64,000 bases of DNA from a bacterium (GTDB lineage: Bacteria; Electryoneota; Electryoneia; Electryoneales; Electryoneaceae). The notes under the pieces were generated by a model. The model ran no database searches. It worked only from the letters and a program-made list of their open reading frames with translations, and was not told where the DNA came from. The stretch spans positions 2,677,586-2,741,585 of the forward strand of contig OY769902.1 of NCBI GenBank assembly GCA_963669175.1. Reading direction: 5' to 3'. The translations under genes and the position numbers were made by a program. This document shows, piece after piece, positions 1 to 26,915 of this stretch; position 1 is the stretch's first letter, and every line of letters starts with the position of its first letter.

Positions 1-716
1 CAGAACTGTTTGGCAAGGATATCGAACATGTTCCAGCCGGTACTGCCCATAAACTGGATGTCGATCATCCGAAGACCGCCAAACGGTGGGCGATGGTGAT
101 TGATACTCGCAAGTGTCGTGAAAATCCGGACTGCGATGCCTGTATCAATGCCTGTCATGATGTTCATAACGTGCCGCATTTTGAGGAAAAAGACGAGATC
201 AAGTGGATCTGGAAAGAAAGCTATCACCATGCTTTTTCCGGCGATGACAACGAATACATGCCGCATGACATTCTGCATTCGAATGTCCTGTTGCTGTGTA
301 ACCACTGTGATGATCCGCCTTGTGTGAAGGTGTGTCCGCCGAAGGCGACATTCCAGCGTGAAGACGGTATCGTGATGATGGACTGGCACCGTTGTATCGG
401 TTGTCGTTATTGCATCGCGGCCTGTCCTTACGGTTCACGTTCGTTCAACTGGCGTGACCCGCGCGAAGGCTTGGAAAACAAGAACCCGAACTTCCCGACA
501 CGGGAAAAGGGCGTTGTTGAAAAGTGTACATTCTGCGACAGCCGACTGGCGCGCGGCCAGTTACCGGCCTGTGTTGAGGTCTGCCCGCATCACGCGCTGA
601 CATTCGGTGATATTGATGATCCGAACAGCGAGGTGCGTGAGATTCTCGAACAGAACAACACGATTCGCCGCAAGCCCAGTTTGGGTACAAAACCGCAAGT
701 TTTCTACATTGTGTGA
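1..716 (+). CDS. 4Fe-4S ferredoxin-type subunit of a membrane-bound oxidoreductase (NrfC/PsrB/ActB-C-terminal-like); 5' end lies outside the window
   Basis: Reading frame is open from nt 3 with no stop before the track start at 93. Several CxxCxxCxxxCP ferredoxin motifs are present (CDACINACHD, CNHCDDPPCVKVCP, CIGCRYCIAACPYG, CTFCDSRLARGQLPACVEVCP). The ..KRWAMVIDTRKC.. stretch is typical of NrfC/PsrB FeS subunits. Confidence 0.8.
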   Translation, partial: ELFGKDIEHVPAGTAHKLDVDHPKTAKRWAMVIDTRKCRENPDCDACINACHDVHNVPHFEEKDEIKWIWKESYHHAFSGDDNEYMPHDILHSNVLLLCNHCDDPPCVKVCPPKATFQREDGIVMMDWHRCIGCRYCIAACPYGSRSFNWRDPREGLENKNPNFPTREKGVVEKCTFCDSRLARGQLPACVEVCPHHALTFGDIDDPNSEVREILEQNNTIRRKPSLGTKPQVFYIV

Positions 717-726
717 GGGATAGATC

Positions 727-1896
727 ATGATTGAAAAAGCGTTACACGGTGGAAAGGCATACTGGGCGCTGATCGTGGTCATCCTTGGGGTGATTGGGGT
801 TGGCGTAGCCACCTGGTTCTATCAGTACCACAATGGTCTGACAGTAACCGGGTTAAACCGGGACGTGTCCTGGGGGCTGTATATCGGCCAGTTGACTTTC
901 TTTGTGGGTGTCGCGGCGTCTGCAGTTATGCTCGTACTGCCGTACTACCTGCACGATTACAAAGCGTTTGGCAAGATGACGGTGTTGGGTGAGTTCGTCG
1001 CCATTGCTTCCGTCATCATGTGCGTGTTGTTCGTGTTTGTCGACCTTGGCAAGCCGATGCGCATTACCAATGTCTTCCTGCATCCGAACCCGATATCCAT
1101 GATGTTCTGGGATACGATCGTGTTGTCCGGTTACATGTTGCTGAACATCCTGATCAGCCGTGTTGCCCTGGATGCGGAGAAGAAGGGTATTGCACCGCCG
1201 AAGTGGATCAAGCCGTTCATCATCCTGTCGATTCCATGGGCGGTCAGTATTCATACTGTCACGGCATTCCTGTATGCCGGCCTGGTTGCTCGTCCCTTCT
1301 GGATGACGGCTGTTATGGCGCCTCGATTCCTGGCGTCTGCGTTTGCCGCCGGTCCGGCTCTGCTGATGATTTTTGCGTTGATCATTCGCAAGTTCACCAA
1401 GTTTGATCCGGGCGAAAAGGCGATCAACCGTCTGAGCATCATTATCACGTATTCCATGGCGATCAATGTTTTCCTGATTCTGATGGAAGTCTTCACCGCG
1501 GCCTATAGCGGGATGCCGGAACACCTGGACCACTTCAAGTTCCTGTATACCGGCATTACCGATGCGAACGGTGTCACCCATACACAGATGGTACCGTGGA
1601 TGTGGGCATCGTCGATCCTGGCGCTGGTTTCCCTGTTCATCCTGTTTGTTCCGAAACTACGGAAGAACCACGGTTTGTTGTTCATGGCTTGTGCGGCGGT
1701 GTTCATTTCGCTGTGGATTGACAAGGGTTTCGGCCTGATGATCGCCGGATTCACCCCGACACCGACTCACCAGATCGCGTACTACATGCCGACATTGCCG
1801 GAATGGTTGATCATGTTCGGCATCTTCGGGATTGGCGCGTTTATCATCACCACGTTGTACAAGGTGGCGCTGACCATGCGTGGAGCGGTGAAATAG
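727..1896 (+). CDS. NrfD/PsrC-family polytopic membrane subunit (quinol-interacting anchor of a polysulfide/nitrite-reductase-like complex)
   Basis: 389 aa with about 8-10 hydrophobic helices. Starts 11 nt after the FeS gene with the same orientation. Architecture and length match the NrfD/PsrC family. Confidence 0.75.
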   Translation: MIEKALHGGKAYWALIVVILGVIGVGVATWFYQYHNGLTVTGLNRDVSWGLYIGQLTFFVGVAASAVMLVLPYYLHDYKAFGKMTVLGEFVAIASVIMCVLFVFVDLGKPMRITNVFLHPNPISMMFWDTIVLSGYMLLNILISRVALDAEKKGIAPPKWIKPFIILSIPWAVSIHTVTAFLYAGLVARPFWMTAVMAPRFLASAFAAGPALLMIFALIIRKFTKFDPGEKAINRLSIIITYSMAINVFLILMEVFTAAYSGMPEHLDHFKFLYTGITDANGVTHTQMVPWMWASSILALVSLFILFVPKLRKNHGLLFMACAAVFISLWIDKGFGLMIAGFTPTPTHQIAYYMPTLPEWLIMFGIFGIGAFIITTLYKVALTMRGAVK

Positions 1897-1915
1897 CAGC
1901 ACGTTTCAGTCTTTT

Positions 1916-1951
1916 CAGGGGGTCGGGGTATTTATGATCCCGGCCCCTTTT
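1916..1951 (+). terminator. Rho-independent terminator after the NrfD-like gene
   Basis: GGGGTCGGGG...CCCGGCCCC stem followed by TTTTTGTTGG. Confidence 0.55.
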
Positions 1952-1959
1952 TGTTGGAA

Positions 1960-2007
1960 GTGAAAAAAGTGAAAAAAGTGAAAAAGGTGAAAAAAGTGAA
2001 AAAGGTG
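1960..2007. repeat. Tandem repeat (GTGAAAAAG)x5, 9-bp period
   Basis: Directly visible in sequence. A second degenerate copy (gaagtggaaagtgaaaaggtgaacaaag) lies at about 2412-2440. Confidence 0.9.
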
Positions 2008-2529
2008 GGTGGCCCTGTACGTTTCTAACAATACTGTATAGGAGTGCATGGCCCGATTTGCCGGAAGTGCAACATGATACTATCGAGATGCTGACAAGAT
2101 TTGTGGGGCGTCGTCTTATGATGCGGATCATGAGCAAGTCGGGAACTGCGGAGAGCCTGGGTGGCCGATCCGCAGGTACAAATGCTGCCACTATACTTGA
2201 AACAAGAAAACAATGAGGAACTATCCATTCTTGATGAGGTATTGAGCGAATCGGGACAGTGATAGGGAATTGTGTTTTCTCTATTGCCCGAAACCCATTC
2301 CCGATGCGCTCAAGAGTACGAAGAGGAATGAGATGCAGTGGGTATATTTCTTTTGAACCGAAAACGGAAAGTGCATCACTTGAGGTTCTGGCCAACCAGT
2401 CCATTTTTGTTTGAAGTGGAAAGTGAAAAGGTGAACAAAGTATAACTGTAGGATATGTCTTGGATTAGATTTGTGGTGCGCCTTTCACTGTTGAGATGAA
2501 AGAGTGTGACAGTCACAATTGGAGAAACC

Positions 2530-3438
2530 ATGAAACAAGCACGCATCATTTTCCTGGCCGGAGTAGCAAGCCTGCTTCTCTTCACCGGAATTGGCTGCAA
2601 GAAGCAGGAACAAATACCTGGTGCGTCAGCATGGAATCAGGAACCGGAAAAAGCAGTGGAAACCAGAGCGGCGAGCCAGGATCCGGAAGAAGTGTTGGAG
2701 ACGCTGGTCGTTGATGCGGATGTGGATGTTGAGATACGAATGCAGTTCATTCCGGTTTTTAATCGAAAAGACCCGATGAGCTATGAAGATATGGGCGAAG
2801 ACTACGAGAAGATGGAAGGTTGTGTCGCAAAAGCAGAATCACTGCTTGCCGCCCAGCGTGATATGAACTATAACCTTTTAACAGCAGCCGGTGGAGTTTC
2901 TGATTTCCCTTATTACGATCAAGCTGGTCAGGCCTGGAATCTTGCATATTCTGAACTTGGCGAGAGAAACAACTGGTATCTGTTTTCACTTTGTTGCGAT
3001 AGTGATACCGTGTACCAGTTTGAGACGCCATTTGGGTATCCTTTCAAGGTTCTACATGGAATCATCTTTCACGATACAACCTGGGTATTGGGGTATCATC
3101 GTATCACAAGAGAAGAACACGATTTATCCATACAATATGAAACAATTATAAATGGCGTCAGCTTCAATGACCAGGAAGGGTATGACGAAGTTGACTTCTA
3201 CGGTTGGATAGAAAACGAACCTTTCTATGTCTTCAAGAAGGGAGATCAATATGGGTATGTTTATAAAAATCAAGTAGTAAATGTCGGTTGGTCGTATTTA
3301 TATAATAGCGCTGGTGATGGCAGTCCAAAGTACACCTATCCGGAGAAAAGAAAGCAGGGCATGTTCTTCCAGGTACAGGAAGATGGGTACTGGGGATTTG
3401 TGGTACTGTACAGTGAAGTGATTGCCAAGAATGTGTGA
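2530..3438 (+). CDS. Lipoprotein, WG-containing beta-repeat family-like (paralog A)
   Basis: Signal peptide with lipobox LLLFTGIGC. RBS ggagaaacc lies upstream of the ATG at 2530. The C-terminal region (...KRKQGMFFQVQEDGYWGFVVLYSEVI...) resembles WG-beta repeat modules. About 45 % identical to the next gene. Confidence 0.6.
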   Translation: MKQARIIFLAGVASLLLFTGIGCKKQEQIPGASAWNQEPEKAVETRAASQDPEEVLETLVVDADVDVEIRMQFIPVFNRKDPMSYEDMGEDYEKMEGCVAKAESLLAAQRDMNYNLLTAAGGVSDFPYYDQAGQAWNLAYSELGERNNWYLFSLCCDSDTVYQFETPFGYPFKVLHGIIFHDTTWVLGYHRITREEHDLSIQYETIINGVSFNDQEGYDEVDFYGWIENEPFYVFKKGDQYGYVYKNQVVNVGWSYLYNSAGDGSPKYTYPEKRKQGMFFQVQEDGYWGFVVLYSEVIAKNV

Positions 3439-3505
3439 TAGAGGTGATTCAGGGCAGTTAACAGGATAGTTGTACTTACTGGCGAGCTCCATTTCAGGAG
3501 AATTC

Positions 3506-4339
3506 ATGAGACAAGCGATCATCTGTTTATGGGTACTGGGGCTGAGCCTGCTGCTTTGTCTCGGAAACGGTTGCCAGAGATGCGAACAGGAACAGAAGAA
3601 GCCAGCCATCGATGCGGACACAGAAGTGGCGTTCAAAATGGTGTTTATTCCTGTCGCTGATCATAAAGAGCCACTGCATTATGAAGGAACGAGCGAAGAA
3701 CGTGAGAAGCTGAAAGAAAGTTTCGCGGAAGCGGAATCATTGCTGGCTGCACAACGTGACATGAATTACAACTTGGTGACAACGACCATGTGGGGACATG
3801 AATTTCCCTATCGTGATGACCAGGACAATATCTGGACCCTGAGCAAAACGCGACCGTCCAACAATACGGCTACGTATTCACTGATTCGAGGTAAGGATAC
3901 CGTATACCGTTTTGAAGCGCCGTTTGCATCCTCCAGCAATATTATAAAGGGATTCATTGCAATGGATTCGACCTGGGTTCTGGGGTACAAGGGATACCGT
4001 AAGCAAACACAGGAAGACAATGGATCCCGTCTGACTTCTAAAATGGTAGTAAATGGAATCGATATCGGTGAACAGGAAGGGTATGATGACGTCTATTTCT
4101 TCGGCTGGATCGAGGGTGAAGTTTTTTATGTATTCAAACAAGATGAACAGTTTAGCTATGTCTATAGGGACAAAGTGAACAACCTTGGCTGGACAAAAGT
4201 AATGGATACTGCAGGGGATGGGAGTTACATATACACTTTTCCTGAAAAGCGAAGCCAGGGCATGTTCTTCCAGGTGCAGGAAGATGGGTACTGGGGATTT
4301 GTGGTGTTGTACAGTGAGTTGATACCGAAGGATGGATGA
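3506..4339 (+). CDS. Lipoprotein, WG-containing beta-repeat family-like (paralog B)
   Basis: Lipobox LLLCLGNGC. RBS aggag upstream of the ATG at 3506. Shares the blocks AESLLAAQRDMNYNL, WVLGY, EGYD-V-F-GWIE, QGMFFQVQEDGYWGFVVLYSE with paralog A. Confidence 0.6.
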   Translation: MRQAIICLWVLGLSLLLCLGNGCQRCEQEQKKPAIDADTEVAFKMVFIPVADHKEPLHYEGTSEEREKLKESFAEAESLLAAQRDMNYNLVTTTMWGHEFPYRDDQDNIWTLSKTRPSNNTATYSLIRGKDTVYRFEAPFASSSNIIKGFIAMDSTWVLGYKGYRKQTQEDNGSRLTSKMVVNGIDIGEQEGYDDVYFFGWIEGEVFYVFKQDEQFSYVYRDKVNNLGWTKVMDTAGDGSYIYTFPEKRSQGMFFQVQEDGYWGFVVLYSELIPKDG

Positions 4340-4360
4340 GGGGCAGATGAGTGAATATAG

Positions 4361-4443
4361 AAAAAGGGGACAGTTTCCTTTTCCATAAGTTGTGCGAAAA
4401 TGTCACGTATTATCGAGAGGAAAAGGATCCCGTCCCCTTTTCC
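4361..4443. repeat. Long inverted-repeat hairpin (AAAAAGGGGACAGTTTCCTTTTCC ... GGAAAAGGATCCCGTCCCCTTTTCC), member of a GGGNACAGNNNCCTTTYCC family; probably an intrinsic terminator
   Basis: Two roughly 20-nt arms are reverse-complementary with a 34-nt loop. The distal arm is followed by a T-run. Related pairs occur at 9727-9805 and 9828-9912. Confidence 0.6.
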
Positions 4444-4597
4444 CGACATACAAAATACGCTATTCAAATGATCGAACTTCGGTTGAAAGTCGAAAGAATG
4501 CCGTTATTCTAATCATCCTTTTATCCTGTTATCCTGTTCATCTTGAGAGTATCTTGTACATCTTGTGAATAGCAGTGGAGCTGTAAAGGAGAGAGAG

Positions 4598-6250
4598 ATG
4601 CAAGTCGTGATTATCGGTGGTGACGCCGCAGGGTTGAAGACAGCAGCACGTTTACGCAGGCTGGATGCCGATACGGAGATCGTGGTTCTCGAAAAGGGTG
4701 ATGTCATTTCCTATGCAGCCTGTGGGCTGCCCTATGTCCTGTCCGGGGATATTGATTCAGTCAATGACCTGTTGACCACGTCGTGGGATGAACCCAAGAC
4801 CCCGGAGTATTTCAAACGGGCCAAGGATGTTGACGTTCGGATCAAGACAGAAGCAGTCGGTATTGACCGGGAAAATAAGCTGGTTACGGCTAAAAATGTC
4901 GAGACCGGTGAAATGACTGAAATTCCTTATGACAACCTGGTCATCGCGACCGGCGCATCACCGATTCTTCCTCCGGGTGTGACAGGATGCGATCTGGATG
5001 GTGTCGGCTGCTTCACCAAACCGTCCGAGATGAAAGCGTTGAAGATGGGGTTGGCGCAGGGTGAAATCGGACGTGTGGTGATTCTGGGGGCCGGGTATAT
5101 CGGGCTGGAACTGTGCGAAGCCTTCGCCGCTTTGTGGGGCGCGGAAGTCGTTCTGCTGGAGAAGGAAGACCAGGTGCTGCCACGTTTTCTCGATCCTGAA
5201 ACGGCAAAGCTGGTCAATGCCGAGCTTGTAAACAATGATATTGAGGTACACTGCGGGGTGACAGTCGCCTCAATCGAAGAATCCGATGACGGTCTGTTGG
5301 TGAAAGATACGGACGGAAACGAGTATACCGGCGATCGTGTGGTTCTGGCTGCCGGGGTGCGTCCGAATACAGCATTGGCGGAACAATGTGATCTGCCCCT
5401 GGGTGCGCATGGCGGCATACAGGTCAATTGCCAGGGCAAAACAGAAGATCCCTACATCTATGCCGCCGGTGACTGCGCCGAGCTGCCGATTGAGGATGGT
5501 TCCCACCTGATGCCGTTGGGATCGATTGCCAACCGCATGGGCCGGGTGGTGGCGAATAACATCATGGGGCAGGAAGATGAAATGCCCTTCCTGCACGGTA
5601 CAGCAGTCGTGAAAGTGTTTGATCTGAACGTGGCGATTTGCGGCACCTGCGCCAATAGTCTGAAACGTAAAGGTCTGGAACCGGAAGAATACTGGTCCAG
5701 CTTTGATGAACGAGCGCATTATTACCCGGAAGGTCAGAATGTCAGGATGAAGATTACCTGTTATCCTGGCGGTAAACTGGCGGGGATACAGGTGCTCGGT
5801 AAGGGAGAAGTGGTTCGTTGGGCAAATACCTTTGCACAGGTGATGGACCTGGGCGGGGGAGATGCACGTATGCTCAACCGTCTTGAACATGCCTACGCGC
5901 CACCCTTTGCCGCGGCGATGGACCCGTTACACTACATGGCCTCCATGATCGAACGTGGCCCTGACTGGCAGATGGCCCCGGATACGCTCGAAGACGGTGG
6001 TGATGAAGCCTGGACCGTGGTTTGCTTGCTGACCGACGCGGAAGAAGCGGAATTGGATAAGCCGGATGTAAAGGGACACTGGCTGCATATTCCGTACAGT
6101 CATCTTCGTGAACGCATGAGCGAGTTGCCGAAGGATAATGTGGTCCTGATCTGCGCCCTGGGTACACGAAGCTATGATGCCTGTGTAACCCTGCGGAACC
6201 TGGGCTACCATGCCAAGTATATCGCAGGGGGAGTGGCTTTCGGGAAATGA
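4598..6250 (+). CDS. CoA-disulfide reductase / NADH oxidase-family flavoprotein with C-terminal rhodanese domain (NADH-dependent persulfide reductase, Npsr-like)
   Basis: N-terminal VVIIGGDAAG FAD fold and SYAACGLPY redox-active Cys, typical of the CoADR/Nox family. Second Rossmann motif VILGAGYIGLE. The C-terminal 100 aa carry a rhodanese-like active-site loop CALGTRS. RBS aaggagagag upstream of the ATG at 4598. Confidence 0.8.
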   Translation: MQVVIIGGDAAGLKTAARLRRLDADTEIVVLEKGDVISYAACGLPYVLSGDIDSVNDLLTTSWDEPKTPEYFKRAKDVDVRIKTEAVGIDRENKLVTAKNVETGEMTEIPYDNLVIATGASPILPPGVTGCDLDGVGCFTKPSEMKALKMGLAQGEIGRVVILGAGYIGLELCEAFAALWGAEVVLLEKEDQVLPRFLDPETAKLVNAELVNNDIEVHCGVTVASIEESDDGLLVKDTDGNEYTGDRVVLAAGVRPNTALAEQCDLPLGAHGGIQVNCQGKTEDPYIYAAGDCAELPIEDGSHLMPLGSIANRMGRVVANNIMGQEDEMPFLHGTAVVKVFDLNVAICGTCANSLKRKGLEPEEYWSSFDERAHYYPEGQNVRMKITCYPGGKLAGIQVLGKGEVVRWANTFAQVMDLGGGDARMLNRLEHAYAPPFAAAMDPLHYMASMIERGPDWQMAPDTLEDGGDEAWTVVCLLTDAEEAELDKPDVKGHWLHIPYSHLRERMSELPKDNVVLICALGTRSYDACVTLRNLGYHAKYIAGGVAFGK

Positions 6251-6294
6251 AGTTTGAAAGTTCAAAAGTTTGAAAGTTTGAAAGTTGAAAAGTT
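6251..6294. repeat. Tandem repeat (AGTTTGAA-like)x5, 8-9-bp period, immediately after the stop codon
   Basis: agtttgaaagttcaaaagtttgaaagtttgaaagttgaaaagtt. Confidence 0.9.
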
Positions 6295-6307
6295 ATTTTG
6301 TCAGCAA

Positions 6308-6342
6308 GCCGGGACAGAGCCATAGAAGAGCTGTCCCGGTTT
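6308..6342 (+). terminator. Rho-independent terminator
   Basis: CCGGGACAGagccatagaagagCTGTCCCGG followed by TTTTCG. Confidence 0.6.
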
Positions 6343-6355
6343 TCGTATACAACGG

Positions 6356-6381
6356 TAGCCCGGCCATGCCTGGCCGGGAAT
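6356..6381. repeat. Conserved hairpin element GTAGCCCGGCCATGCCTGGCCGGGA (second copy at 24441-24466)
   Basis: Near-identical 25-mer at both loci, in each case directly next to an A/G-rich short tandem repeat array. Internal palindrome CCGGCCA/TGGCCGG. Confidence 0.8.
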
Positions 6382-6556
6382 GGCATGTTGTATTGCTCGA
6401 GATCCCCGTTTTGTTCACGGCAGTGCTTCGCACCCCGCAAGCTTCGCTACGGTTCAAGCCGAGCCAGACGATTGATGTCTGATACTATTTTCATCTTTCG
6501 ACTGCCCCTGCTTGCTCGTCAGCATAGTATATACTAATTCAAAGACCAAGTCGGTA

Positions 6557-8839
6557 CTATTTCATCAGAATCAATCGTTGAATTGAGGTTTGTCCATCAA
6601 TATCCGCAACCACAAAGTATATCCCGCTGGATAGCAGACCATTGCAGGCCTGATTGCTGTTCCAATTTAACTCGTGATGCCCCGCGGCAATTTCCCCTGA
6701 AATCAGGGTTTGTACCCGCTGTCCCAGGATATTAACGATCTCCACCTGGCCGTTCCCTAGTCGTGAAAGGTTCAACGTGATCCGTGTCGAACTGTTGAAC
6801 GGGTTGGGGTAGGGCGCGCTCAGATTTACCTGTTGTGGGAGCAAGGATTGGTCTGAGACTTGTTCGTCTACCGAAGTCGGACAGGCTTCGCTGATGTCGA
6901 ACACTCTGAGGCCTGTATTGGACGTACAATAGAATCTTTGACCTTCATAGACAATGGAATTAAAGACATCGACATAATCAGGATAATATCCCGTCAGTGC
7001 TGGGTGGGCACGATCTGCTAGATCATAGATCATAAATTCATCTTGACCAGAGCAGTATATAAATAGATATCCCCAGTGAATGGAAATGGCCGATTGATTC
7101 TCGAGTAGAATTTCGTCAACAATTTCAGGTTGTGATGCAATACGAGCATCAATAATCATCAACGAACAGATATAACCATCATCATATTGATAGGCATAGG
7201 CATAAAGAAAACCATTGTAATATTCACAAAATCTTATGGTATAATTATCCAACGAAAGGGTTGCAATAATTGTGGAATCTGCCGGACGTGTCAAATCGAA
7301 TACTGTTATCTCATTTCTAAACGGCGCAAACAGGAAACGATCCGTCCCACAACACCTGTTTGCACCTTCCGGTATCACAAGCCTTTCTTGAAATTGGTCA
7401 TTTTCAGTATCAAGAATGCACATGGATTCATTCCCATATACAGGACCGCAAAATACCACAATTGTAGAGTCGCCTGTCGTCACCATATTTCCAATCACGG
7501 GAGCGGTGAATGTATCACACGCAACAGGCGTCTGCATGTTGTCCAGATTATACAAGACGACCATGTCATTTCCAGCCTCATTAGAAAGTGCAAGTAGATA
7601 GTTGTTTCCGATCATGACTTCCGAAAAAACAGTCTCAGTCTCAAGTGTATCAATGACATCCGGAAGCCCGGGTGCGGAAAGATCAAGGATGAAGATGCCC
7701 TGTTCTGAATTTGCCATATAGCCATAATTATTGAACATACAAATGTCACGTGGACCACCAGGCGCAACTCCAGAAGTGGAAAGCAGCTCAAACCAGTTGT
7801 TCTGTCTACTGTAGATATCGTAGGATTCACCAGCAGCATGGACAAAATCTCTATCTGCATACCAGACTTTGTGCAACTCACCGATTTCATCAAACAGTCC
7901 ATACATTTGCGGGGATACCGGATTTGTTATATCGTAGATGCGCAACATGTTTCTGTTATACGTCAATTCCAGTAGTCCATTCCTGTATTTCATCTTGTAA
8001 TCATCATCAGAAAGGGTAAAACTGCTTTGTAATTCCAGATCATCGTTCTCTTCAGAAAAGGTGTAGATTTCCAGGGTGGCGGGGTGATGAAACCAGGGAA
8101 CCGTAATCGCATAGAAGATATCATCCACAATCAATTGCTGAGCGAAACTGTTGAATTCAACATCAGTAAAATCACCGTACAGGTTGTCGATGTAATCCTG
8201 TCCTCCGGATAAGTAGAGAGTTGAATCATGAATAGCAAAATCAACAAAGGGAGTGATATAGTCGCCAACGAATGCTTCGCCTTCATACACTTGCCGAATC
8301 GTGTCAGGGTTTGAAATGTCATAGATACCAACGGTCACGGTAATGCAGGCAAAGGGCCAATCGGGCGGAGGGGGAGATTCCCACTCGCCACAGATCATGA
8401 TATAGGGATAACGAATGCTTTTTTCCAGGAAACTCGGATTGGAGCCAGTCCCGGCCGGGATTTCCAGTGTATCTAAAGCTATTACCTGGTGATCTTCCTG
8501 AACACGGTAGATGACCCGTTTGCTGTAAATCAGGTTTTCGTTCACTTGCTCAAATTCAACGGGGAAGCCGTTTGAGTAGTGCGCAGTCTCGACAGGTGAA
8601 GCAGGATCGGAAATATCCAACCAGGCGTGACCATAGTGCTCGATGCCTAATAATACCGTATCACCAAAGACGGCTATCGATTGGACATCTCCCCAGGACT
8701 CGAACATGGTGCCAAGGCAGGAAACATTCAGGCTGTCCTGGGCATGGGTAACTGAAGAAAAGGGCAAAATGGAAAGAGAAACGAGGATTGAAAGCACAAA
8801 AACCTGCGCCAGACGGAACAACGCATCCTGCTTTACCAT
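6557..8839 (-). CDS. Large secreted protein with Por/T9SS C-terminal sorting domain (beta-propeller-like repeats; function unknown)
   Basis: N-terminal signal peptide (LSILVSLSILPFSSVTHAQ). C-terminal ~80 aa (YPNPFNSSTRITLNL...GQRV..L.....AGHHELNW......SGIYFVVADIDGQTSIQRLILMK) matches the Por_Secre_tail pattern. Confidence 0.7.
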   Translation of the reverse strand: MVKQDALFRLAQVFVLSILVSLSILPFSSVTHAQDSLNVSCLGTMFESWGDVQSIAVFGDTVLLGIEHYGHAWLDISDPASPVETAHYSNGFPVEFEQVNENLIYSKRVIYRVQEDHQVIALDTLEIPAGTGSNPSFLEKSIRYPYIMICGEWESPPPPDWPFACITVTVGIYDISNPDTIRQVYEGEAFVGDYITPFVDFAIHDSTLYLSGGQDYIDNLYGDFTDVEFNSFAQQLIVDDIFYAITVPWFHHPATLEIYTFSEENDDLELQSSFTLSDDDYKMKYRNGLLELTYNRNMLRIYDITNPVSPQMYGLFDEIGELHKVWYADRDFVHAAGESYDIYSRQNNWFELLSTSGVAPGGPRDICMFNNYGYMANSEQGIFILDLSAPGLPDVIDTLETETVFSEVMIGNNYLLALSNEAGNDMVVLYNLDNMQTPVACDTFTAPVIGNMVTTGDSTIVVFCGPVYGNESMCILDTENDQFQERLVIPEGANRCCGTDRFLFAPFRNEITVFDLTRPADSTIIATLSLDNYTIRFCEYYNGFLYAYAYQYDDGYICSLMIIDARIASQPEIVDEILLENQSAISIHWGYLFIYCSGQDEFMIYDLADRAHPALTGYYPDYVDVFNSIVYEGQRFYCTSNTGLRVFDISEACPTSVDEQVSDQSLLPQQVNLSAPYPNPFNSSTRITLNLSRLGNGQVEIVNILGQRVQTLISGEIAAGHHELNWNSNQACNGLLSSGIYFVVADIDGQTSIQRLILMK

Positions 8840-8978
8840 AATATTCTCCCCCTCAAAGAATAAGTCTTATTGGGCTTTCGCACTCCCCCTTCATAAAACT
8901 ACTAACAACATTTCGCTCTTTTCAAGTGATTCTGGCGTATTGAGCAGACTTTTACCAGATGTACAGTAGGGCGATTTC

Positions 8979-9533
8979 TCAGGACGTCAGGTGATCGACC
9001 AGAATTCGGACACCGATCAGGATGAGGATAATGCCGGCGCTGATCTCCAGCTTGCCAGACAGACGATTGGTGACAAAAGCCGCAGCACGCATGGAAACAG
9101 CCGTGAGCAGGGTGGTGGTGACGCCTATGATTGTGACGGCGAGCGGAATGCCGATGGTTGTGCCCGGAAGCGCCAATCCAGCACCCAGCGCATCGATGCT
9201 GACTGCAATGGAGAGGCCAATCATTCGCCAGCTACGAGTGAGGTCAACTTCGGAAGCGTGTTCGGTGTCGTCGTTACGGTTGAGGATCATGCGAACACCG
9301 AGAAAGGCCAGGACGCCAAACACCAGCCAATGATCCCAGGGGCCGATCCATTTCAGCAGTACCGTACCGGCCAACGCGCTGGCTAATGGGAATAGCGCCT
9401 GGAACAGACCGAAATGGAAGGAAATACGGAAAAGGGCACGTCCGCTACGGTAACGTAAGCCTAATGCACCACCTACCGCGGTGGCGTCCATCGCCAAAGC
9501 AAGGGATAAAACAAGTACTTCAACCAGCCCCAT
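8979..9533 (-). CDS. mntP: Manganese efflux pump MntP
   Basis: 184 aa, 6 TM segments. Blocks AMDATAVG, WDHWLVFGVLAFLGVRMI, SIDALGAGLAL and ISAGIILILIGVRIL align with E. coli MntP (SMDAFA, WNHWIAFVLLIFLGGRMI, SLDAMAVGVGLAFL, AEILGGLVLIGIGVQIL). Confidence 0.85.
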   Translation of the reverse strand: MGLVEVLVLSLALAMDATAVGGALGLRYRSGRALFRISFHFGLFQALFPLASALAGTVLLKWIGPWDHWLVFGVLAFLGVRMILNRNDDTEHASEVDLTRSWRMIGLSIAVSIDALGAGLALPGTTIGIPLAVTIIGVTTTLLTAVSMRAAAFVTNRLSGKLEISAGIILILIGVRILVDHLTS

Positions 9534-9726
9534 CAGGGTTCCTGTGTTTGCTTCGTATCAAACAGGCGATTCTTCTCTTATTATGACTCTTGATTACAAC
9601 ATTTCATCCAAAACGGAAACTATCGTATGCTGTAGTGCCTAAAAACTTGTTTCTCCGCTGTTTAGAATGCGTAAGATATCGACTTGAGTATTCCTTCTTA
9701 TGATCATTCAGCAATAACAAGCGATA

Positions 9727-9805
9727 AATCTGGTACAGTTACCTTTTCATCAAAGATATTTTCTATATCTTACATCTGTAATCATGAAAAGGTAACAGTA
9801 CCATT
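9727..9805. repeat. Inverted-repeat hairpin pair (CTGGTACAGTTACCTTTTCATC ... GATGAAAAGGTAACAGTACCAT), GGGNACAG...CCTTT family
   Basis: Arms are reverse complements separated by about 35 nt. Located downstream of recG (minus strand) and upstream of mntP. Confidence 0.6.
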
Positions 9806-9827
9806 TTTCGCGTGATTCCTGCCTGTT

Positions 9828-9912
9828 CGCAAGAAAAAGGGTACAGCCACCTTTCCCGAACCATATACACACCGGGACCACTTGATTCCAGGGAAAGGAA
9901 ACTGTCCCCTTT
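9828..9912. repeat. Inverted-repeat hairpin pair (AAAAAGGGTACAGCCACCTTTCCC ... GGAAAGGAAACTGTCCCCTTTTTCC); probable recG terminator read on the minus strand
   Basis: Arms are reverse-complementary. On the minus strand the distal arm is followed by a T-run. Same family as 4361-4443. Confidence 0.6.
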
Positions 9913-10023
9913 TTCCATATCCTCTTTCTATATCACCAATAGATCGATCGTTTGATACTATCATGACGGTTTATTTTCAAGAGTAGCTATATTTTATCCT
10001 AATTCCTAATTCCTAATTAAGCT

Positions 10024-12150
10024 CTATCCCACTTTGATCCATTGCATTTTGTCTTTCGCCATTTCCTGGAACGCTTCCCGGAGTTCCGGCCAGGTCCGCA
10101 GGGTGACATCTTTGTTGATCAGTTCGTCGGCAGCGTGGCGGGCGCGCATGAGGAGCTGCTGATCGTTGACGATATCCGCGAATTTCAGTTCCGGCATGCC
10201 ATGTTGACGTGTGCCGAAGACATCCCCGCTGCCACGCAGGCGCAGGTCTTCTTCCGCGATGACGAAGCCGTCGAGAGTATTGATCATCGTCTTGATACGT
10301 GAACGCGCTACTTCAGTTACCGGCGGATAGCCCACGAGGTAACAACGGCTGTCGTTGCCGCCACGTCCGACTCGTCCACGTAACTGGTGCAACTGCGACA
10401 GGCCGAACCGTTCCGAGTGCTCGATCACCATTTCCGTAGCTTCCGGCACATCCACGCCGACTTCTACTACCGTGGTCGATACCAGTGCCGCCGCCTGTCC
10501 TGAGGCAAACTTCTGCATGGCAGCTTCTTTCTCGTCCATCTTCATCCGGCCATGCAGCAATTCAACAGGCAGGCCTTTCAATGGTCCATTTATCAGTTCT
10601 TCACGTCCCTCGACAGCCGCTTGCAGATCCAACTTCTCCGATTCCTCAACGAGGGGGAAGATGATGTAGGCGCGTCCACCTTTTTCCAGGCGTTTGCGGA
10701 TACGGCGATACAAGTCATCACGTTGATTGTCGCCGTTGATGGCCTGCGTGGTGATCTTCCCGCGTCCCGGGGGCATCTCATCAAGCCTGCTGACCTCAAG
10801 ATCACCGTACATGGTCAACGCCAGCGAGCGTGGGATCGGGGTAGCGGTCATAACCAGGACATCCGGCTTCTGCTTCAGGCCGGGGTCCATCAGTTTCTGA
10901 CGTTGTGCTACTCCGAAACGGTGCTGTTCATCTATGACTGTCAGCCCGAGGTTGGGCAGGATGACCGAATCCTGGATAATGGCGTGAGTGCCGATCACGA
11001 TACATGGTTCCCCGGAATCGAGACGGGGCAGGATTTCTTTCCGTTCAGCCGCCTTGGTTGATCCGGTCAGAAGATAGACCTGAACGCCAAGCCCCTCAAG
11101 GAATTTTCGACTGGTCAGGTAATGCTGTTCCGCCAGGATTTCTGTGGGCGCCATAAGCGCTGCCTGATAACCGTTTTCCACGGCTATACTCATGGCTATC
11201 AGCGCTACAACCGTCTTCCCCGAACCAACATCGCCCTGTAACAGGCGGCTCATCGGATGGGGGGAGGTCATGTCATTCCAGATCTCACGCAATACCCGTT
11301 TCTGGGCATTGGTCAAGTCAAAAGGCAGCTTTTTGTTGATCAGGTCACGTGTCTGGTCGCCAACCTGCGGATAAGCGATGCCGGATTCTTTCTGCTTCCG
11401 TTTATACCGGGTATATCCCCACATGAGTTGCAGAAATACGAGTTCGTCAAACTTGAACCGTTCCAGTCCTTTTTCCAGCTCCTGCTGGTTGTGAGGACGA
11501 TGGACTGCGTTCAGCGCTTCACGTATTGGCATCAGGTTAAAACGGTTCAGCAATTCTGTAGACCACATCTCTGTAATGGAATTGCCGAACTCACCGATAA
11601 TACGTTCCATCAGTTTTCGCAGGCCGCGCGCATCCAGCCCGGCATTTTCGAACTCCTTGCCGCCTGGATAGAGCGCTACCCATCGTCCACTTCCGGATTT
11701 CAGATCTTCCGCTTCTCCTTTGGACAGGTATGTAACTTCCGGATGCGCCATTTGCAGCTCGAAACCGAACTGCTTGACCACTCCGGAAAATGCAGCGGTA
11801 TAGCCGAATTTGATCCATTTTTTTATCTGGTTGGTACGTCGGAACCAGACCAGCTTGATAGCGCCGCCGCTGCCGTCTTCCAGGATGGCTTCGTACCGGG
11901 TTTTGCCTTTGGCTTTAACTTCTCGCGTGTCGGCAATGGTGCCGATAACCGTGATCTCGCCATTGGATGGCCCCTGCAGGGAGTTGAGCTGGGTTGTATG
12001 AGTACGATCCAGGTAACGACGCGGGAAGAAGAGGAGAAGATCCCGAAGAGTGCGTACCCCGGCCTTTTCGAACGGCACCGCTTTTTTTACCCCGATGCTC
12101 CGTACGAATCGTACCGATAAATTCAATGGCGCTGCTTTTTGACTACTCAA
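10024..12150 (-). CDS. recG: ATP-dependent DNA helicase RecG
   Basis: 708 aa. Walker A GDVGSGKT, DEQHRFGV (DEAH-like), TATPIPRSL, and C-terminal helicase motifs QLHQLRGRVGRG. N-terminal wedge domain of RecG length. Confidence 0.9.
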   Translation of the reverse strand: MSSQKAAPLNLSVRFVRSIGVKKAVPFEKAGVRTLRDLLLFFPRRYLDRTHTTQLNSLQGPSNGEITVIGTIADTREVKAKGKTRYEAILEDGSGGAIKLVWFRRTNQIKKWIKFGYTAAFSGVVKQFGFELQMAHPEVTYLSKGEAEDLKSGSGRWVALYPGGKEFENAGLDARGLRKLMERIIGEFGNSITEMWSTELLNRFNLMPIREALNAVHRPHNQQELEKGLERFKFDELVFLQLMWGYTRYKRKQKESGIAYPQVGDQTRDLINKKLPFDLTNAQKRVLREIWNDMTSPHPMSRLLQGDVGSGKTVVALIAMSIAVENGYQAALMAPTEILAEQHYLTSRKFLEGLGVQVYLLTGSTKAAERKEILPRLDSGEPCIVIGTHAIIQDSVILPNLGLTVIDEQHRFGVAQRQKLMDPGLKQKPDVLVMTATPIPRSLALTMYGDLEVSRLDEMPPGRGKITTQAINGDNQRDDLYRRIRKRLEKGGRAYIIFPLVEESEKLDLQAAVEGREELINGPLKGLPVELLHGRMKMDEKEAAMQKFASGQAAALVSTTVVEVGVDVPEATEMVIEHSERFGLSQLHQLRGRVGRGGNDSRCYLVGYPPVTEVARSRIKTMINTLDGFVIAEEDLRLRGSGDVFGTRQHGMPELKFADIVNDQQLLMRARHAADELINKDVTLRTWPELREAFQEMAKDKMQWIKVG

Positions 12151-12219
12151 CGGCTTTCTGTCCTCTCACTCATGCTACTAACCAAGTATTTTGCCCGTCT
12201 GCCAGCCAGCCGGGTATCG

Positions 12220-12244
12220 TCATTCCCGCGAAGGCGGGAATCTA
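12220..12244. repeat. Hairpin TCATTCCCGC-GAAG-GCGGGAATCTA (ATTCCC-N8-GGGAAT type), about 70 nt upstream of the recG start
   Basis: Perfect 8-bp stem with a GAAG loop. Related copies at 16841-16866 and 16959-16981. Confidence 0.7.
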
Positions 12245-12315
12245 CTCCCTTTGAATTACAGAGTAATACTTGTTGCAACGTACAGTTCGTCTTCACTGGA
12301 AAAAGTGTTAGTCTC

Positions 12316-13668
12316 TTACCAGGCCTTTACCCGGTATTTCAACATGATTTCGCCATCTGCAGGAACCGGGACATTCCATTTGTAGGTACGGGAATCGGTT
12401 TTCCGGCCCTTGATGGATTCATTTTCTATGGACCAATTGGCATAATTGTGTTCAACCACGACAATAGTCACGGCTTCCTTCTTATGGTTGCGCAACGACA
12501 ATTCCACTTCGTACTCGTAAACATTGCCGCGACGCACTTCATTGGTGACAACACGTTCGGCAACGAGGTCAAACGCTTTCCCGGTGACAAGTTGGATATC
12601 CTCATCACGTGGAGTATGGTCGATATTGTCCTCACCGATGAATTCAAGGTTACCGTCGGAATCACGCTTCATCAAACGAACCAGTCCCTTGGGCAGAGGC
12701 AGGCCAAGCCCGTTTTCTTCCGAGTTCGTGAATTCCATGCTTACTGTGATCTTGGTCTGATCAACGCGGTTGTCGTAAGTGAAAACCTTTTTCGCTGGCG
12801 TACTTGCCGGCTCGAACAGGCTGATCTGCTTCTGTTGATTGTGTTTGATCGTAACAGGGCGTGGCAGGGTATAGAGGTGGTATTCGAAGAATTCCTTCTC
12901 TGCGAACCCCTCATCCAGGGCAAAAAAGTCTACCGTATTGGCCTCCATGTAGCCACCTGCTTTACGCCCACGCACTTGTTGCAATACCTGCACATCACCA
13001 GCCATCAGTTTCAGCCTGGCGTTTTCATATGTAGCGCCGGAACGGTTGTCCATCTGAACCCAACCGGCCAGATCAATCGCGTCATCGTTGGCGGAGATCA
13101 CGGCCACATAGCTTGCATTCCAGGAAATACCACGAGTAATGTAGGACAGATCGGCTTCCATCTTACCGGCCTTGTTCGCCACCAGTAACCAGCGCAAGGT
13201 CGGTTTGAGCATGAGACCATCCGGCAAGGCGGGAAAATCAATACTGGTGATGGAAGCGTGGGTGATGGAACGGATGCGTCCGTCTTTCTCTTCCACGATT
13301 ACCGGAGGACCGGCGCTGAGCAAACGTCCACGCACCAGGCCGCCCTGTTCAACCAGTTGAATCTCAATCTGTTCACCGATGTACTTGCTCATCAGGGCCG
13401 TATTGTCGACCAGGTCGTACTCGTAGTTCTGCTCGAGAATCTTCAGCCCTTTACCTTTTAGCAGAACCGAGGTTGGATCAATCTGGCTGGCTACACCGTC
13501 GTATGAGAATTCCTGCACGCCCTTTTCCAGGTCCAGGGTGCGTTTCTGACGTACCAGCGCCATGCCCTGGTTGTATACGGTAATAGCCGTGGTCGGCTCT
13601 TCGGCCAGTGCAACAACGGCAAGACAAAGCAGGATAGCAGAAGTCACCAAAGTTTTTGGATGTTTCAT
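12316..13668 (-). CDS. Secreted DUF4139/DUF4140-family protein (mucoidy-inhibitor MuiA-like)
   Basis: Signal peptide MKHPKTLVTSAILLCLAVVALA after RBS ggagg. N-terminal TVYNQGMALVRQKRTLDLEKGVQEFSYDGVASQIDPTSV resembles the DUF4140 start. About 450 aa, typical for the family. Start moved to an internal Met at 13668. Confidence 0.6.
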   Translation of the reverse strand: MKHPKTLVTSAILLCLAVVALAEEPTTAITVYNQGMALVRQKRTLDLEKGVQEFSYDGVASQIDPTSVLLKGKGLKILEQNYEYDLVDNTALMSKYIGEQIEIQLVEQGGLVRGRLLSAGPPVIVEEKDGRIRSITHASITSIDFPALPDGLMLKPTLRWLLVANKAGKMEADLSYITRGISWNASYVAVISANDDAIDLAGWVQMDNRSGATYENARLKLMAGDVQVLQQVRGRKAGGYMEANTVDFFALDEGFAEKEFFEYHLYTLPRPVTIKHNQQKQISLFEPASTPAKKVFTYDNRVDQTKITVSMEFTNSEENGLGLPLPKGLVRLMKRDSDGNLEFIGEDNIDHTPRDEDIQLVTGKAFDLVAERVVTNEVRRGNVYEYEVELSLRNHKKEAVTIVVVEHNYANWSIENESIKGRKTDSRTYKWNVPVPADGEIMLKYRVKAW

Positions 13669-13910
13669 CAGTTCCTCCCGAGTAGTTGGCAAATCACTGC
13701 AAACAGTACCGGCTCGATTTGTAAACATCAATCTGCACAAGACAAAGCAGGATGGTATTAAAATAACCATCCTGAGTATCCTTTACATCCTTTGCATCCT
13801 GTAAATTCAAATTTTACAAGTCGGGACTCAGACCCGATTGAATAGACCGAGAACTTGCTTCCGGTTCTTACAATGCGAGAAAAAACAACTTCTCTTGACA
13901 AGCATTTTGC

Positions 13911-13983
13911 TGAAACCCGACAGCAAGCAGTCGGGCCAAGCGAATTTCATTGTATTGAAACCCGACAGCAAGCAGTCGGGCCA
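13911..13983. repeat. Two direct copies of a 28-nt REP-like element TGAAACCCGACAGCAAGCAGTCGGGCCA (13911-13938, 13956-13983)
   Basis: Each copy contains the hairpin CCCGAC-agcaagca-GTCGGG. The same element is present twice at 19112-19177. Confidence 0.85.
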
Positions 13984-14038
13984 CACAATGTCTTATCCTG
14001 TAAATTCTGAATCAATCCTGTTCATCTTGTGAATCGAT

Positions 14039-16753: not shown

Positions 16754-16840
16754 GTTGTCACCACTTCAGCTCAAAGAGTTACACTGAACCGAAATACTCT
16801 TATCCCAGCGAAGCAAGGTGCCTCAGAATCACTGATACTC

Positions 16841-16866
16841 TCATCCCAGCGAAGGCTGGGATCCAG
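16841..16866. repeat. Hairpin TCATCCCAGC-GAAG-GCTGGGATCCAG about 90 nt upstream of valS; degenerate copy at 16797-16822
   Basis: 8-bp stem with a GAAG loop. Same architecture as 12220-12244. Confidence 0.7.
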
Positions 16867-16958
16867 GCAAGTATCTATGTGTGAAAGAGAAGAACCTTTC
16901 TACATCACACAATGCGACGTGCAGAAATTCCCGCTTGTACGAATGTCGCAAGATGACT

Positions 16959-16981
16959 GGATTCCTGCCTGCGCAGGAATG
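16959..16981. repeat. Hairpin GGATTCCTGC-CTGC-GCAGGAATG (ATTCC-N8-GGAAT type)
   Basis: 8-bp perfect stem. Third member of the family in the valS/recG upstream regions. Confidence 0.65.
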
Positions 16982-17335
16982 AGAGTGTTATTGAGTCTGA
17001 GTAATCTTGAGAATCGTACATCACTTTCCATAAAGCTGCAATCCTCTGGTCACTCGTAACGTAAAACTCTCAAGACTTGGAAGATACAAAAGAAGTAAGG
17101 GAGGGAACAGACCTGATTTCAGAGGGAGACGAGGAGGTAGATGCTGTATTTCCAAAACAGTAGGGTGAATTCACAAGATGAACAGGCCAGGTAATGATAA
17201 ACAACCGGTCAGCGCATGAGTAGGTCTACCTGCACAGGATGCCAGTTACAGGAAAGGTATCAGGAGAACGATTGTGAAAAGGAGCCAACTAATTCTACGA
17301 GCCCAATGCACTGGGATTTACCCGTTAGCGGGCGA

Positions 17336-18145
17336 CTAAAACGATACCACACTGCCAAAACTGATTGCCGGATAAATCTTTTCATTCATGAGCACCAGCA
17401 TGAGTTCTGGATGAATGTTTCCCCATCGGTAGCCGAAACTCAACGAGGGAATAATCGTGAATCTCTGGTCCGTGGCTTTCACTTCTATGCCATTGATTAT
17501 TCGTGGAGTCGCTGATTGCGCCGTGACGTTGTAGTCAAGGAAATACACGGATGGTGTAAATGTAAACCACTGGTTTTCCCTTGTTTTGGAACTGATTGGG
17601 ATGACCAGCTCATAGCCAAGAATGGAGGATGTGGATTCCAGATCCGGATCATTTATCATTGAGGATCTGAAAGTTTCAGTTTGATCGCTGAAGGAATACC
17701 CTACTCCCGGCATGACGCTCATCTGGGTGGGATTCTCCTTTTCGCTTACGCAGTATTTCAGATGGACAGACCCGCCATAACTGCGCCCGAGCACGGCCCG
17801 TCCGGCAAAACCATGCAGACGGATGTCCATCCTGTCTAACACGCCCAGGCTGAAACCGCCGCCAAAACTGGTCCCGTAAAAAGAAAACGACTTGCATTCA
17901 ATACCGGTAAGAGTATCGTCTTCAAGGCTGTAAAAGGATGTAATGTTGTTCATTGTGTAACTCAGGCCGGCATTGCCATGAAAAGCGACGTGCCATTGCC
18001 CCTCCGTCGAACCCAGTTCATGGTGAGCCATTTCGTAGGTGGCGGCGGAAGTGATACGTGGGGTCTCAAGAATACTGCTACAGGAAGTAAAAAGCGCCAT
18101 TACAAGTAGCAAGACAAGGATTCTATACAGGCATTTTATCCGCAT
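17336..18145 (-). CDS. Putative outer-membrane beta-barrel lipoprotein
   Basis: Lipoprotein signal (LLLVMALFTSCSS), alternating amphipathic beta-strand pattern, C-terminal ...SFGSVVSF ending in Phe as in OMP beta-barrels. Confidence 0.5.
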   Translation of the reverse strand: MRIKCLYRILVLLLVMALFTSCSSILETPRITSAATYEMAHHELGSTEGQWHVAFHGNAGLSYTMNNITSFYSLEDDTLTGIECKSFSFYGTSFGGGFSLGVLDRMDIRLHGFAGRAVLGRSYGGSVHLKYCVSEKENPTQMSVMPGVGYSFSDQTETFRSSMINDPDLESTSSILGYELVIPISSKTRENQWFTFTPSVYFLDYNVTAQSATPRIINGIEVKATDQRFTIIPSLSFGYRWGNIHPELMLVLMNEKIYPAISFGSVVSF

Positions 18146-18912: not shown

Positions 18913-19111
18913 CTGTATTTCCTATGTATATAACTCAGACTTTTTGAGGATTGCGTCCCGAAGTACAGGGAAAATAGTGTCTCGCCGTTTGTTTGAAAGT
19001 TCGGATTTTTCCAGATTGGAATCAACATGTTTGAATACAAAATTCCTTTTTTATAGAAGGATGTCTCAAGAATTAATAACTTAAAGCCAGGTAAACTAAT
19101 AAAAGGGCGCG

Positions 19112-19177
19112 TGGCCCGACTGCTTGCTGTCGGGTTTCTGAGCCTTCCCTGAGTCCCGACAGCAAGCAGTCGGGCCA
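19112..19177. repeat. Two copies (inverted relative to each other) of the REP-like element GAAACCCGACAGCAAGCAGTCGGGCCA
   Basis: 19112-19138 is the exact reverse complement of the 13911 unit. 19152-19177 is a direct copy. Located in an AT-rich intergenic region downstream of the nuclease-like gene. Confidence 0.85.
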
Positions 19178-21217: not shown

Positions 21218-21220
21218 GCT

Positions 21221-24466: not shown

Positions 24467-24470
24467 TTAT

Positions 24471-24716: not shown

Positions 24717-26915
<2,199 letters not shown>

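Follow-up and report, generated by a model that had tools for sequence, protein, structure and literature searches.

The first 6250 positions of a 64,000-nucleotide stretch of bacterial DNA (here called the window: GenBank assembly GCA_963669175.1, contig OY769902.1, forward-strand positions 2,677,586 to 2,741,585; phylum Electryoneota) probably combine the tail of a dsrMKJOP operon with the gene for an Npsr-type persulfide reductase. This flavoprotein belongs to a clade inherited within dsr clusters, and would turn over sulfane sulfur derived from the Dsr pathway. An initial annotation had read the region under study, positions 1–6250 of the 64-kb window, as a polysulfide respiratory module of five plus-strand open reading frames (ORFs): an iron-sulfur protein and a membrane anchor of the PsrB/NrfC and PsrC/NrfD kind, two lipoproteins, and a coenzyme A (CoA) disulfide reductase (CoADR) fused to a rhodanese domain. 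All five ORFs are present (Table 1).

Identity of the first two genes

Genes were identified by NCBIfam equivalog cut-offs and Pfam gathering scores. The iron-sulfur protein scored 292.7 bits with the DsrO model NF045797 (cut-off 200) despite its missing N-terminus, and the membrane protein scored 431.3 bits with the DsrP model NF045798 (cut-off 350). Because both exceed the equivalog cut-offs, positions 1–1896 are identified, from sequence, as the 3′ end of a dsrMKJOP operon, encoding the complex known for example from Archaeoglobus fulgidus and Desulfovibrio vulgaris. The window DsrO has cysteines in four sets of four, matching the four [4Fe-4S] clusters seen in the complex by cryo-electron microscopy (cryo-EM). 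In the cryo-EM preprint, quinol is oxidised at DsrP and electrons pass to the four DsrO clusters, on to DsrJ and DsrM, and finally to DsrK, the subunit that reduces the trisulfide of DsrC; a persulfide was observed on Cys329 of DsrK (bioRxiv 10.64898/2026.08.25.746951). In themselves, the window dsrO and dsrP show nothing unusual.

The reading adopted in the initial annotation, a Psr/Nrf-type quinol:polysulfide (or nitrite or tetrathionate) module with a molybdopterin or multihaem subunit encoded upstream and all five genes in one locus, draws on the Pfam assignments: Fer4_11 in the iron-sulfur protein (75.7 bits) and NrfD in the membrane protein (135.1 bits; the family is titled 'Polysulphide reductase, NrfD'). 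The TtrB, NrfC and ArrB models also matched with E-values of 1e-43 to 1e-45. These matches amounted to 146–153 bits against cut-offs of 378–450 (NrfC, 149 versus 377.6; TtrB, about 153 (152.8) versus 416; ArrB, 146.3 versus 450), whereas DsrO and DsrP pass their own. DsrP was far under the QrcD (45.5 bits) and TtrC (39.4 bits) cut-offs, and the QrcC model likewise stayed far under its own.

The gene order of relatives also argues against a Psr/Nrf module. In total 166 related loci were compared, among them 80 loci encoding DsrP relatives (L005–L084), a set fetched with DsrP and biased toward dsr linkage. In 72–74 of these 80, dsrM, dsrK and dsrJ lie upstream of dsrO in the same order, with O-P at the operon end as in the window. 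The closest relative, L005 (88% identity in DsrP, 82% in DsrO), carries dsrM, dsrK, dsrJ and dsrO directly upstream of dsrP, all over the NCBIfam cut-offs. In 74 of the 80 DsrP loci, the position at which the initial annotation expected a molybdopterin or haem partner is taken by dsrJ, preceded by dsrK and dsrM, and no molybdopterin gene was found there. By this order, the window starts within the last gene but one of a dsrMKJOP operon. Since the lipoproteins, too, occur in no related locus, we regard a Psr/Nrf module as extremely improbable. With the pair identified as DsrO and DsrP, the pathway would be dissimilatory sulfite reduction via DsrC, not polysulfide respiration. The dsrAB and dsrC genes adjoin dsrMKJOP in many relatives; they are not within the 64-kb window, and the ORFs scanned at 8979–18145 and 18307–32413 were housekeeping genes or had no Pfam match.

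The pair could also be DsrOh/DsrPh homologues working in a separate tetrahaem-cytochrome complex, as proposed for cable bacteria. Stand-alone homologues do exist (bioRxiv 10.64898/2026.08.25.746951), the region upstream of dsrO lies outside the window, and the dsrP of one related locus, L064, has no dsrMKJO directly upstream. We consider this very improbable, because each protein clears the equivalog cut-off of its own model (DsrO or DsrP), and the orthologue with 88% identity is part of a full dsrMKJOP operon.

A CoADR-rhodanese fusion of the Npsr type

The flavoprotein encoded by the last of the five genes matched Pyr_redox_2 at 215 bits and Pyr_redox at 69.9 bits. Its best structural match, 6PFZ (A. 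fulgidus Npsr; 328 bits), runs end to end over residues 1–548, and 3NTA, 3ICR and 8A56 align at 262–267 bits. The redox Cys42, in the motif SYAACGLPY, aligns with CGLPY of 6PFZ and 3NTA and is kept in 139 of 140 homologues. The rhodanese Cys519, in LICALGTRS, aligns with VVCAIGLRS of 6PFZ; it is invariant (140 of 140), and the G and R of the C-x-x-G-x-R loop are conserved. The Pfam Rhodanese model gave 18.3 bits, under its gathering score of 22.2. Because the protein aligns over its full length with solved CoADR-rhodanese enzymes, including both catalytic cysteines, we take the rhodanese domain to be real despite this score. The fusion with an intact active-site cysteine, as initially described, was thus upheld; of the Pfam families named with it, Fer4_11, NrfD and Pyr_redox_2 were recovered and Rhodanese remained sub-threshold.

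The cut-offs of the CoADR equivalogs were not reached: TIGR03385 gave 319.3 bits (cut-off 578.8), PRK09564 gave 312.7 (458) and PRK13512 gave 162 (394). The Npsr enzymes of A. fulgidus (AfNpsr) and Shewanella loihica (SlNpsr; 3NTA/3NTD) share the two-domain architecture over the full length (328 and 267 bits), together with the redox cysteine and the rhodanese cysteine in C-x-x-G-x-R-S, but are only about 35–40% identical to the window protein. Persulfides of CoA, glutathione and cysteine are substrates of AfNpsr, as is polysulfide; disulfides are not reduced (PMC7969121). The CoAPR of Enterococcus faecalis (EfCoAPR; 8A56) and the CoADR-RHD of Bacillus anthracis (3ICR) have the same fusion and cysteines (262 bits). 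In EfCoAPR both cysteines are required, the rhodanese cysteine is persulfidated in vivo, and bound CoA swings between it and the flavin-site cysteine (PMC9405070); by analogy, this swinging arm may carry over to the window protein. In Firmicutes, the CoAPR and CoADR-RHD genes are found in sulfide-stress operons under CstR control, whereas the window protein comes from a respiratory dsr neighbourhood in lineages of the Fibrobacteres–Chlorobi–Bacteroidetes (FCB) type and other uncultivated ones. By analogy with these enzymes we infer that the flavoprotein, as an enzyme of the Npsr/CoAPR type, reduces persulfides or polysulfide in the cytoplasm with NAD(P)H as the donor. The glutamate that follows the second strand of the Rossmann fold (VVLLEKE) points to NADH.

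Flavoprotein genes of one clade lie in dsr clusters

In 21 of the 80 DsrP loci, tblastn located a same-strand homologue of the flavoprotein gene 27–399 bp after dsrP, at 37–41% identity. In two others, L011 and L012, the homologue follows at 1.7 and 3.7 kb and is 51–52% identical. The gaps between the dsrP and flavoprotein ORFs are often 7–28 bp, as in L009, L008 and L024, and this spacing in many loci implies co-transcription with dsrP. The flavoprotein gene thus commonly follows the operon in this DsrP lineage, in contrast to the Nitrospirota, Thermodesulfovibrio and Desulfobacterales loci, where no homologue was found in those with 10 kb of downstream sequence.

A second set was obtained by scanning metagenome contigs with the flavoprotein family alignment, and comprises 80 loci. 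In 27 of these dsr genes were found in the fetched flanks. Three arrangements were observed: dsrP immediately upstream of the flavoprotein gene (20 of 80), dsrC immediately upstream (L102, L104, L125 and L139; in L125 the order is dsrL-dsrC-flavoprotein gene-hemA), and the flavoprotein gene immediately before dsrT-M-K(-J-O-P) (L118, L126 and L153). A recurrent super-operon begins with dsrA, dsrB, an ORF of 83 amino acids (aa), dsrN, a DsrL-like gene and dsrC. It continues with dsrT (RsbRD_N), dsrM-K-J-O-P and the flavoprotein gene, and ends either in hemA and siroheme-synthase genes (hemA/cysG) or in qmoC and hdrA-like genes.

Two features of these clusters were recorded separately. The ORF of about 83 aa between dsrB and dsrN is conserved at the usual position of dsrD (L006, 1512–1763, with equivalents in 8 loci); as a DsrD candidate it had no Pfam, NCBIfam or PDB match, and it was left unnamed. 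On the Zixibacteria chromosome CP070766.1 (L064, 9779–17350), dsrP, the flavoprotein gene, hemA and siroheme-synthase genes stand together, and the 10 kb before them gave no match to dsrM, dsrK, dsrJ or dsrO. Hence dsrP and the flavoprotein gene are able to move as a pair without the remaining genes of the complex.

DsrL and the window-type flavoprotein co-occur in most of the clusters examined. Both are predicted to be cytoplasmic NAD(P)H-linked flavoproteins encoded within dsr clusters. Their folds are unrelated: DsrL is a GltD/NfnB-like Fe-S flavoprotein (PRK12771), whereas the window protein is a single-cysteine flavoprotein of the CoADR type that carries a rhodanese domain and lacks Fe-S motifs. 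The DsrL-like gene (PRK12771, 590 bits) in the same clusters bears on an oxidative or disproportionating alternative. In this alternative the rhodanese would supply DsrC with sulfane sulfur taken from S0, polysulfide or thiosulfate, in the manner of the Rhd-TusA-DsrE2 relay of sulfur oxidisers, and the flavin domain would keep NAD(H) in balance. DsrL-2 is present in organisms with reductive or disproportionating metabolism (PMC7596348; PMC10591310), a distribution that would suit this direction, and rhodaneses are listed among the open questions of disproportionation (PMC10504309). We find the oxidative direction quite unlikely. All characterised members of the family reduce persulfides with NAD(P)H, neither dsrEFH nor tusA was found in the clusters examined, and the cluster type, with dsrT and a small ORF at the dsrD position, is reductive.

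Neighbour-joining trees of full-length flavoprotein sequences were built with 40 bootstrap replicates. All 53 dsr-linked sequences formed one clade, with an identical leaf set in 40 of 40 bootstraps. The clade also contains 6 loci whose flanks were too short to judge and, as its sole clearly unlinked member, the Electryonea-like locus L088. The remaining 17 loci with a clear lack of linkage fall outside the clade and group with AfNpsr and SlNpsr; a further 28 loci outside it had flanks too short to judge. The window protein fell within the dsr-linked clade in 40 of 40 bootstraps, and the clade left out both Npsr enzymes just as consistently. Residues specific to the clade include F139, N344, W366, E378 and G403. 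In the choice between Npsr and CoADR posed by the initial annotation, the protein groups with Npsr-type enzymes, as was proposed, but in a clade of its own outside the characterised Npsr. The genes upstream in relatives encode a different class of oxidoreductase from the one first assumed, while the flavoprotein retains its Npsr grouping. The idea of a coherent sulfur locus was likewise right in part: dozens of loci indicate that the flavoprotein belongs evolutionarily with the iron-sulfur/NrfD pair, but the system had been given the wrong name.

In the literature searched on dsr clusters and synteny, DsrL, DsrMKJOP, Npsr and CoAPR we found no stated link between a CoADR-rhodanese or Npsr protein and dsr, and in the AfNpsr paper no mention of dsr linkage was found (PMC7969121). 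The gene may have been drawn unnamed in cluster figures, for example among 'syntenic genes 1-4' (PMC6018796, Fig. 2). DsrOP and Npsr-type enzymes are each already known; what appears to be new is a separate Npsr-like clade within dsr clusters, and this dsr-associated clade appears to be undescribed so far.

The interval between dsrP and the flavoprotein gene

In the window, dsrP and the flavoprotein gene are separated by two lipoprotein genes and several intergenic elements (Table 1). The predicted lipoproteins are paralogues with 49% identity. Each starts with a hydrophobic signal ending in G-C (GIGC and GNGC), and the second lipobox is imperfect. No homologue was found in any of the 166 related loci, and in a word-indexed search of 5.8e9 proteins each matched only itself and its paralogue. 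An exhaustive profile search of 1.84e9 representatives with lipoprotein 2 returned 45 weak matches confined to the C-terminal ~150 aa; the ten best were scanned, and none had a Pfam domain. The AlphaFold2 model of lipoprotein 2 had a predicted local distance difference test score (pLDDT) of 39.8, too poor for a fold search. Degenerate WG-type beta repeats, suspected from a DGYWGF motif, were supported by no tool. The lipoprotein genes have a GC content of 45–46% (44.7% in lipoprotein 1) and a third-position GC content (GC3) of 0.45–0.51; the values for dsrP and the flavoprotein gene are 53–55% and 0.60–0.72.

Table 1. Features of the region under study, and contents of the interval between dsrP and the flavoprotein gene in related loci. 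Positions refer to the window or, for L086 and L087, to the locus named.
Feature	Position	Strand	Description
dsrO	3..716	+	FeS protein, 5′ end cut by window edge, 237 aa visible
dsrP	727..1896	+	NrfD-family integral membrane protein, quinol-interacting subunit, 389 aa
Terminator-like hairpin	1917..1957	+	13-bp stem with 8 GC pairs, then UUUUUGUU
Tandem array AAGTGAAAA x 5.6	1958..2007	.	TRF score 86; in the 609-bp dsrP-lipoprotein spacer
Orphan putative lipoprotein 1	2530..3438	+	302 aa, no Pfam/NCBIfam match
Orphan putative lipoprotein 2	3506..4339	+	277 aa, tandem paralogue, no Pfam/NCBIfam match
Long terminator-like hairpin, then UUUUCC	4362..4441	+	After lipoprotein 2
CoADR-rhodanese fusion flavoprotein	4598..6250	+	550 aa; ATG start behind GGAGAG ribosome-binding site
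Tandem array AAGTTTGAAAGTTCAA x 2.8	6250..6294	.	TRF; starts at flavoprotein stop codon
Interval in window			Two lipoprotein genes
Interval in L011, L012			S41 peptidase; L012 also a T9SS-tail-like ORF on the opposite strand
Interval in L086	1823-6411		S41 peptidase, two T9SS arylsulfotransferases, BioY
Interval in L087	2053-7861		MmeI-type restriction-modification system, PadR, two unknowns; hemA still after flavoprotein gene

The significance of the hairpins was assessed from their folding energy relative to 200 shuffled sequences. The first, which resembles an intrinsic terminator, lies 21 nt beyond the stop codon of dsrP and folds at −26.1 kcal/mol (z = −3.26); the second folds at −32.8 kcal/mol (z = −5.06). 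In neither case did any of the 200 shuffles fold as well. From the low GC and GC3, the lack of homologues and the bracketing hairpins with their U-rich tracts, we conclude that the two lipoprotein genes are a lineage-specific insertion predicted to form its own transcription unit. They are no conserved member of the module, to which they had at first been assigned. A tblastn search with hemA, the S41 peptidase, PadR and further genes that occupy this interval in relatives detected no pseudogene remnants in the spacer between dsrP and the flavoprotein gene, and positions 1–9000 contained no Rfam match at E ≤ 1.

The array that starts at the flavoprotein stop codon had no stable fold (z = +0.52). 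The next gene (6557–8839) is convergent with the flavoprotein gene, and the transcription unit therefore ends after the latter. This minus-strand neighbour, at a low 44.8% GC, encodes a secreted protein of 760 aa that has LVIVD repeats and a C-terminal sorting domain (Por_Secre_tail) of the type IX secretion system (T9SS), and so hints at a host from the FCB group. The flavoprotein gene is probably monocistronic here, and we conclude that it adjoins dsrOP as a leftover of an inherited, clustered arrangement.

The window protein belongs to a subclade from organisms of the FCB type, in whose loci T9SS cargo genes lie close by; one member is Candidatus Electryonea clarkiae (phylum Electryoneota). 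In this subclade the interval holds different cargo in each genome, which suggests that it is a local insertion hot spot. A tight operon has probably been eroded in the window's lineage through unrelated insertions between dsrP and the flavoprotein gene, and the three units, dsr tail, lipoproteins and flavoprotein, now look separately transcribed.

This arrangement leaves room for an alternative in which the flavoprotein is a housekeeping enzyme of thiol, reactive-sulfur or oxygen defence (a CoADR, a CoAPR or an NADH oxidase) and its adjacency to dsrOP has no functional meaning today. The gene stands in the window as a separate transcription unit behind two hairpins, and its two closest orthologues are unlinked from dsr. 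Moreover, the E. faecalis CoAPR protects the CoA pool under sulfide stress and does not serve respiration (PMC9405070), and AfNpsr, although from a sulfate reducer, is without an assigned respiratory role (PMC7969121). Set against this are the linkage to dsr across the clade, in three independent arrangements and with 53 linked loci to 1 clearly unlinked, and the 7–28 bp gaps that imply co-transcription with dsrP in many loci. We therefore judge a purely housekeeping function unlikely. It also overlaps with a role in turning over Dsr-derived sulfur, for the clearing of persulfides made by Dsr would be defence too.

Rex and repeat sequences elsewhere in the window

The initial annotation had noted a Rex repressor elsewhere in the window, and this was borne out: a Rex-type gene with Put_DNA-bind_N and CoA_binding domains lies at 50655–51332, 44 kb from the flavoprotein gene. 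The whole window was scanned for the operator TTGTGA-N6-TCACAA with up to 3 mismatches. In agreement with the annotation, no such site was present upstream of the flavoprotein gene (4340–4600). Across the window 33 matches were found and 31.9 were expected. As the matches are at chance level, the scan gave no support to the suggested Rex link, and regulation of the flavoprotein gene by Rex was discarded.

Short A-rich tandem arrays with periods of 8–9 or 16 nt were seen at 1958–2007, 6250–6294, 24377–24534 and 32489–32571; examples in the window are AAGTGAAAA and AAGTTTGAAAGTTCAA (Table 1) and AGTTGTAA x 8.8. The first two arrays are intergenic and lie just after a terminator hairpin or a stop codon. 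A separate region of about 1.1 kb (40240–41349) consists of nested tandem repeats of units containing GGGGATGACA, with periods of 18, 40, 56, 77 and 211 nt and up to 100% identity. Because whole periods repeat, it looks unlikely to be an array of clustered regularly interspaced short palindromic repeats (CRISPR). The ORF across these repeats (40842–41555, minus strand) has no Pfam match.

Proposed role of the flavoprotein

By the mechanism described in the literature, DsrP would oxidise menaquinol and hand the electrons on to DsrO, with its four [4Fe-4S] clusters, on the periplasmic side, from which they would travel via DsrJ and DsrM to cytoplasmic DsrK, for reduction of the DsrC trisulfide made by DsrAB. 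Alongside this chain, Cys519 of the rhodanese domain may take up sulfane sulfur. By analogy with CoAPR, the arm of a bound CoA could carry it to Cys42 beside the FAD, where NAD(P)H would reduce it to H2S. The clade would have been inherited inside dsr clusters typically ordered dsrAB-(small ORF)-N-L-C-T-MKJOP-[flavoprotein gene]-hemA/cysG or qmo. Because the clade has been kept within dsr clusters, its role is most likely the clearing or turnover of sulfane sulfur around the DsrAB, DsrC and DsrK reactions. The substrates may be persulfides of low molecular weight, CoA persulfide being one example, or Dsr proteins that carry a persulfide; the persulfide on DsrK Cys329, together with the arrangement next to dsrC, makes sulfur bound to Dsr proteins worth considering. 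We infer in this way the substrate, the electron donor, the direction of the reaction and any contact with DsrC or DsrK.

Several observations weigh against this proposal. In the window, the flavoprotein gene lies 2.7 kb from dsrP and behind two terminator-like hairpins, and co-expression of the two is therefore not implied in this genome. The nearest relative (L001/L005; 81% and 88% identity) has the two genes on different contigs with other neighbours, and in Electryonea-like loci the flavoprotein gene follows ftsH and has no dsr link. The window opens inside dsrO, so that any dsrMKJ, dsrAB and dsrC genes of the source genome would lie outside the region read. The sub-threshold Rhodanese score and the unreached CoA-disulfide-reductase cut-offs also count here, and no member of the dsr-linked clade has been characterised. 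As loci L005–L084 were chosen via DsrP, their linkage is biased and the metagenome set alone is unbiased, and the phylogeny comes from neighbour-joining trees alone.

In a more specific version of the proposal, the clade would be a part of the Dsr pathway that has so far gone unnamed: a soluble reductase, dependent on NADH, that acts directly on sulfane sulfur bound to Dsr proteins. Its targets would be the DsrC trisulfide or persulfide, or the DsrK persulfide, in lineages with DsrL-type clusters (Zixibacteria, Ignavibacteria, Electryoneota-like organisms and others). We think this version unlikely. If true, those organisms would have, in addition to the membrane complex, a bypass or repair route coupled to NADH.

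For the window, these results correct the earlier reading: its first genes form the tail of what would be an operon for sulfite reduction rather than encoding a polysulfide reductase, and the lipoprotein genes are unrelated inserts. For the Dsr pathway, the control of sulfane sulfur during DsrC-trisulfide reduction is a still-open question of the field, as is the connection to NAD(H) in the newly found lineages that carry DsrL. A clade of persulfide-reductase type that has been kept with dsr genes in three arrangements is a concrete candidate for such a role, and its gene may serve as an additional marker for DsrL-type dsr clusters.

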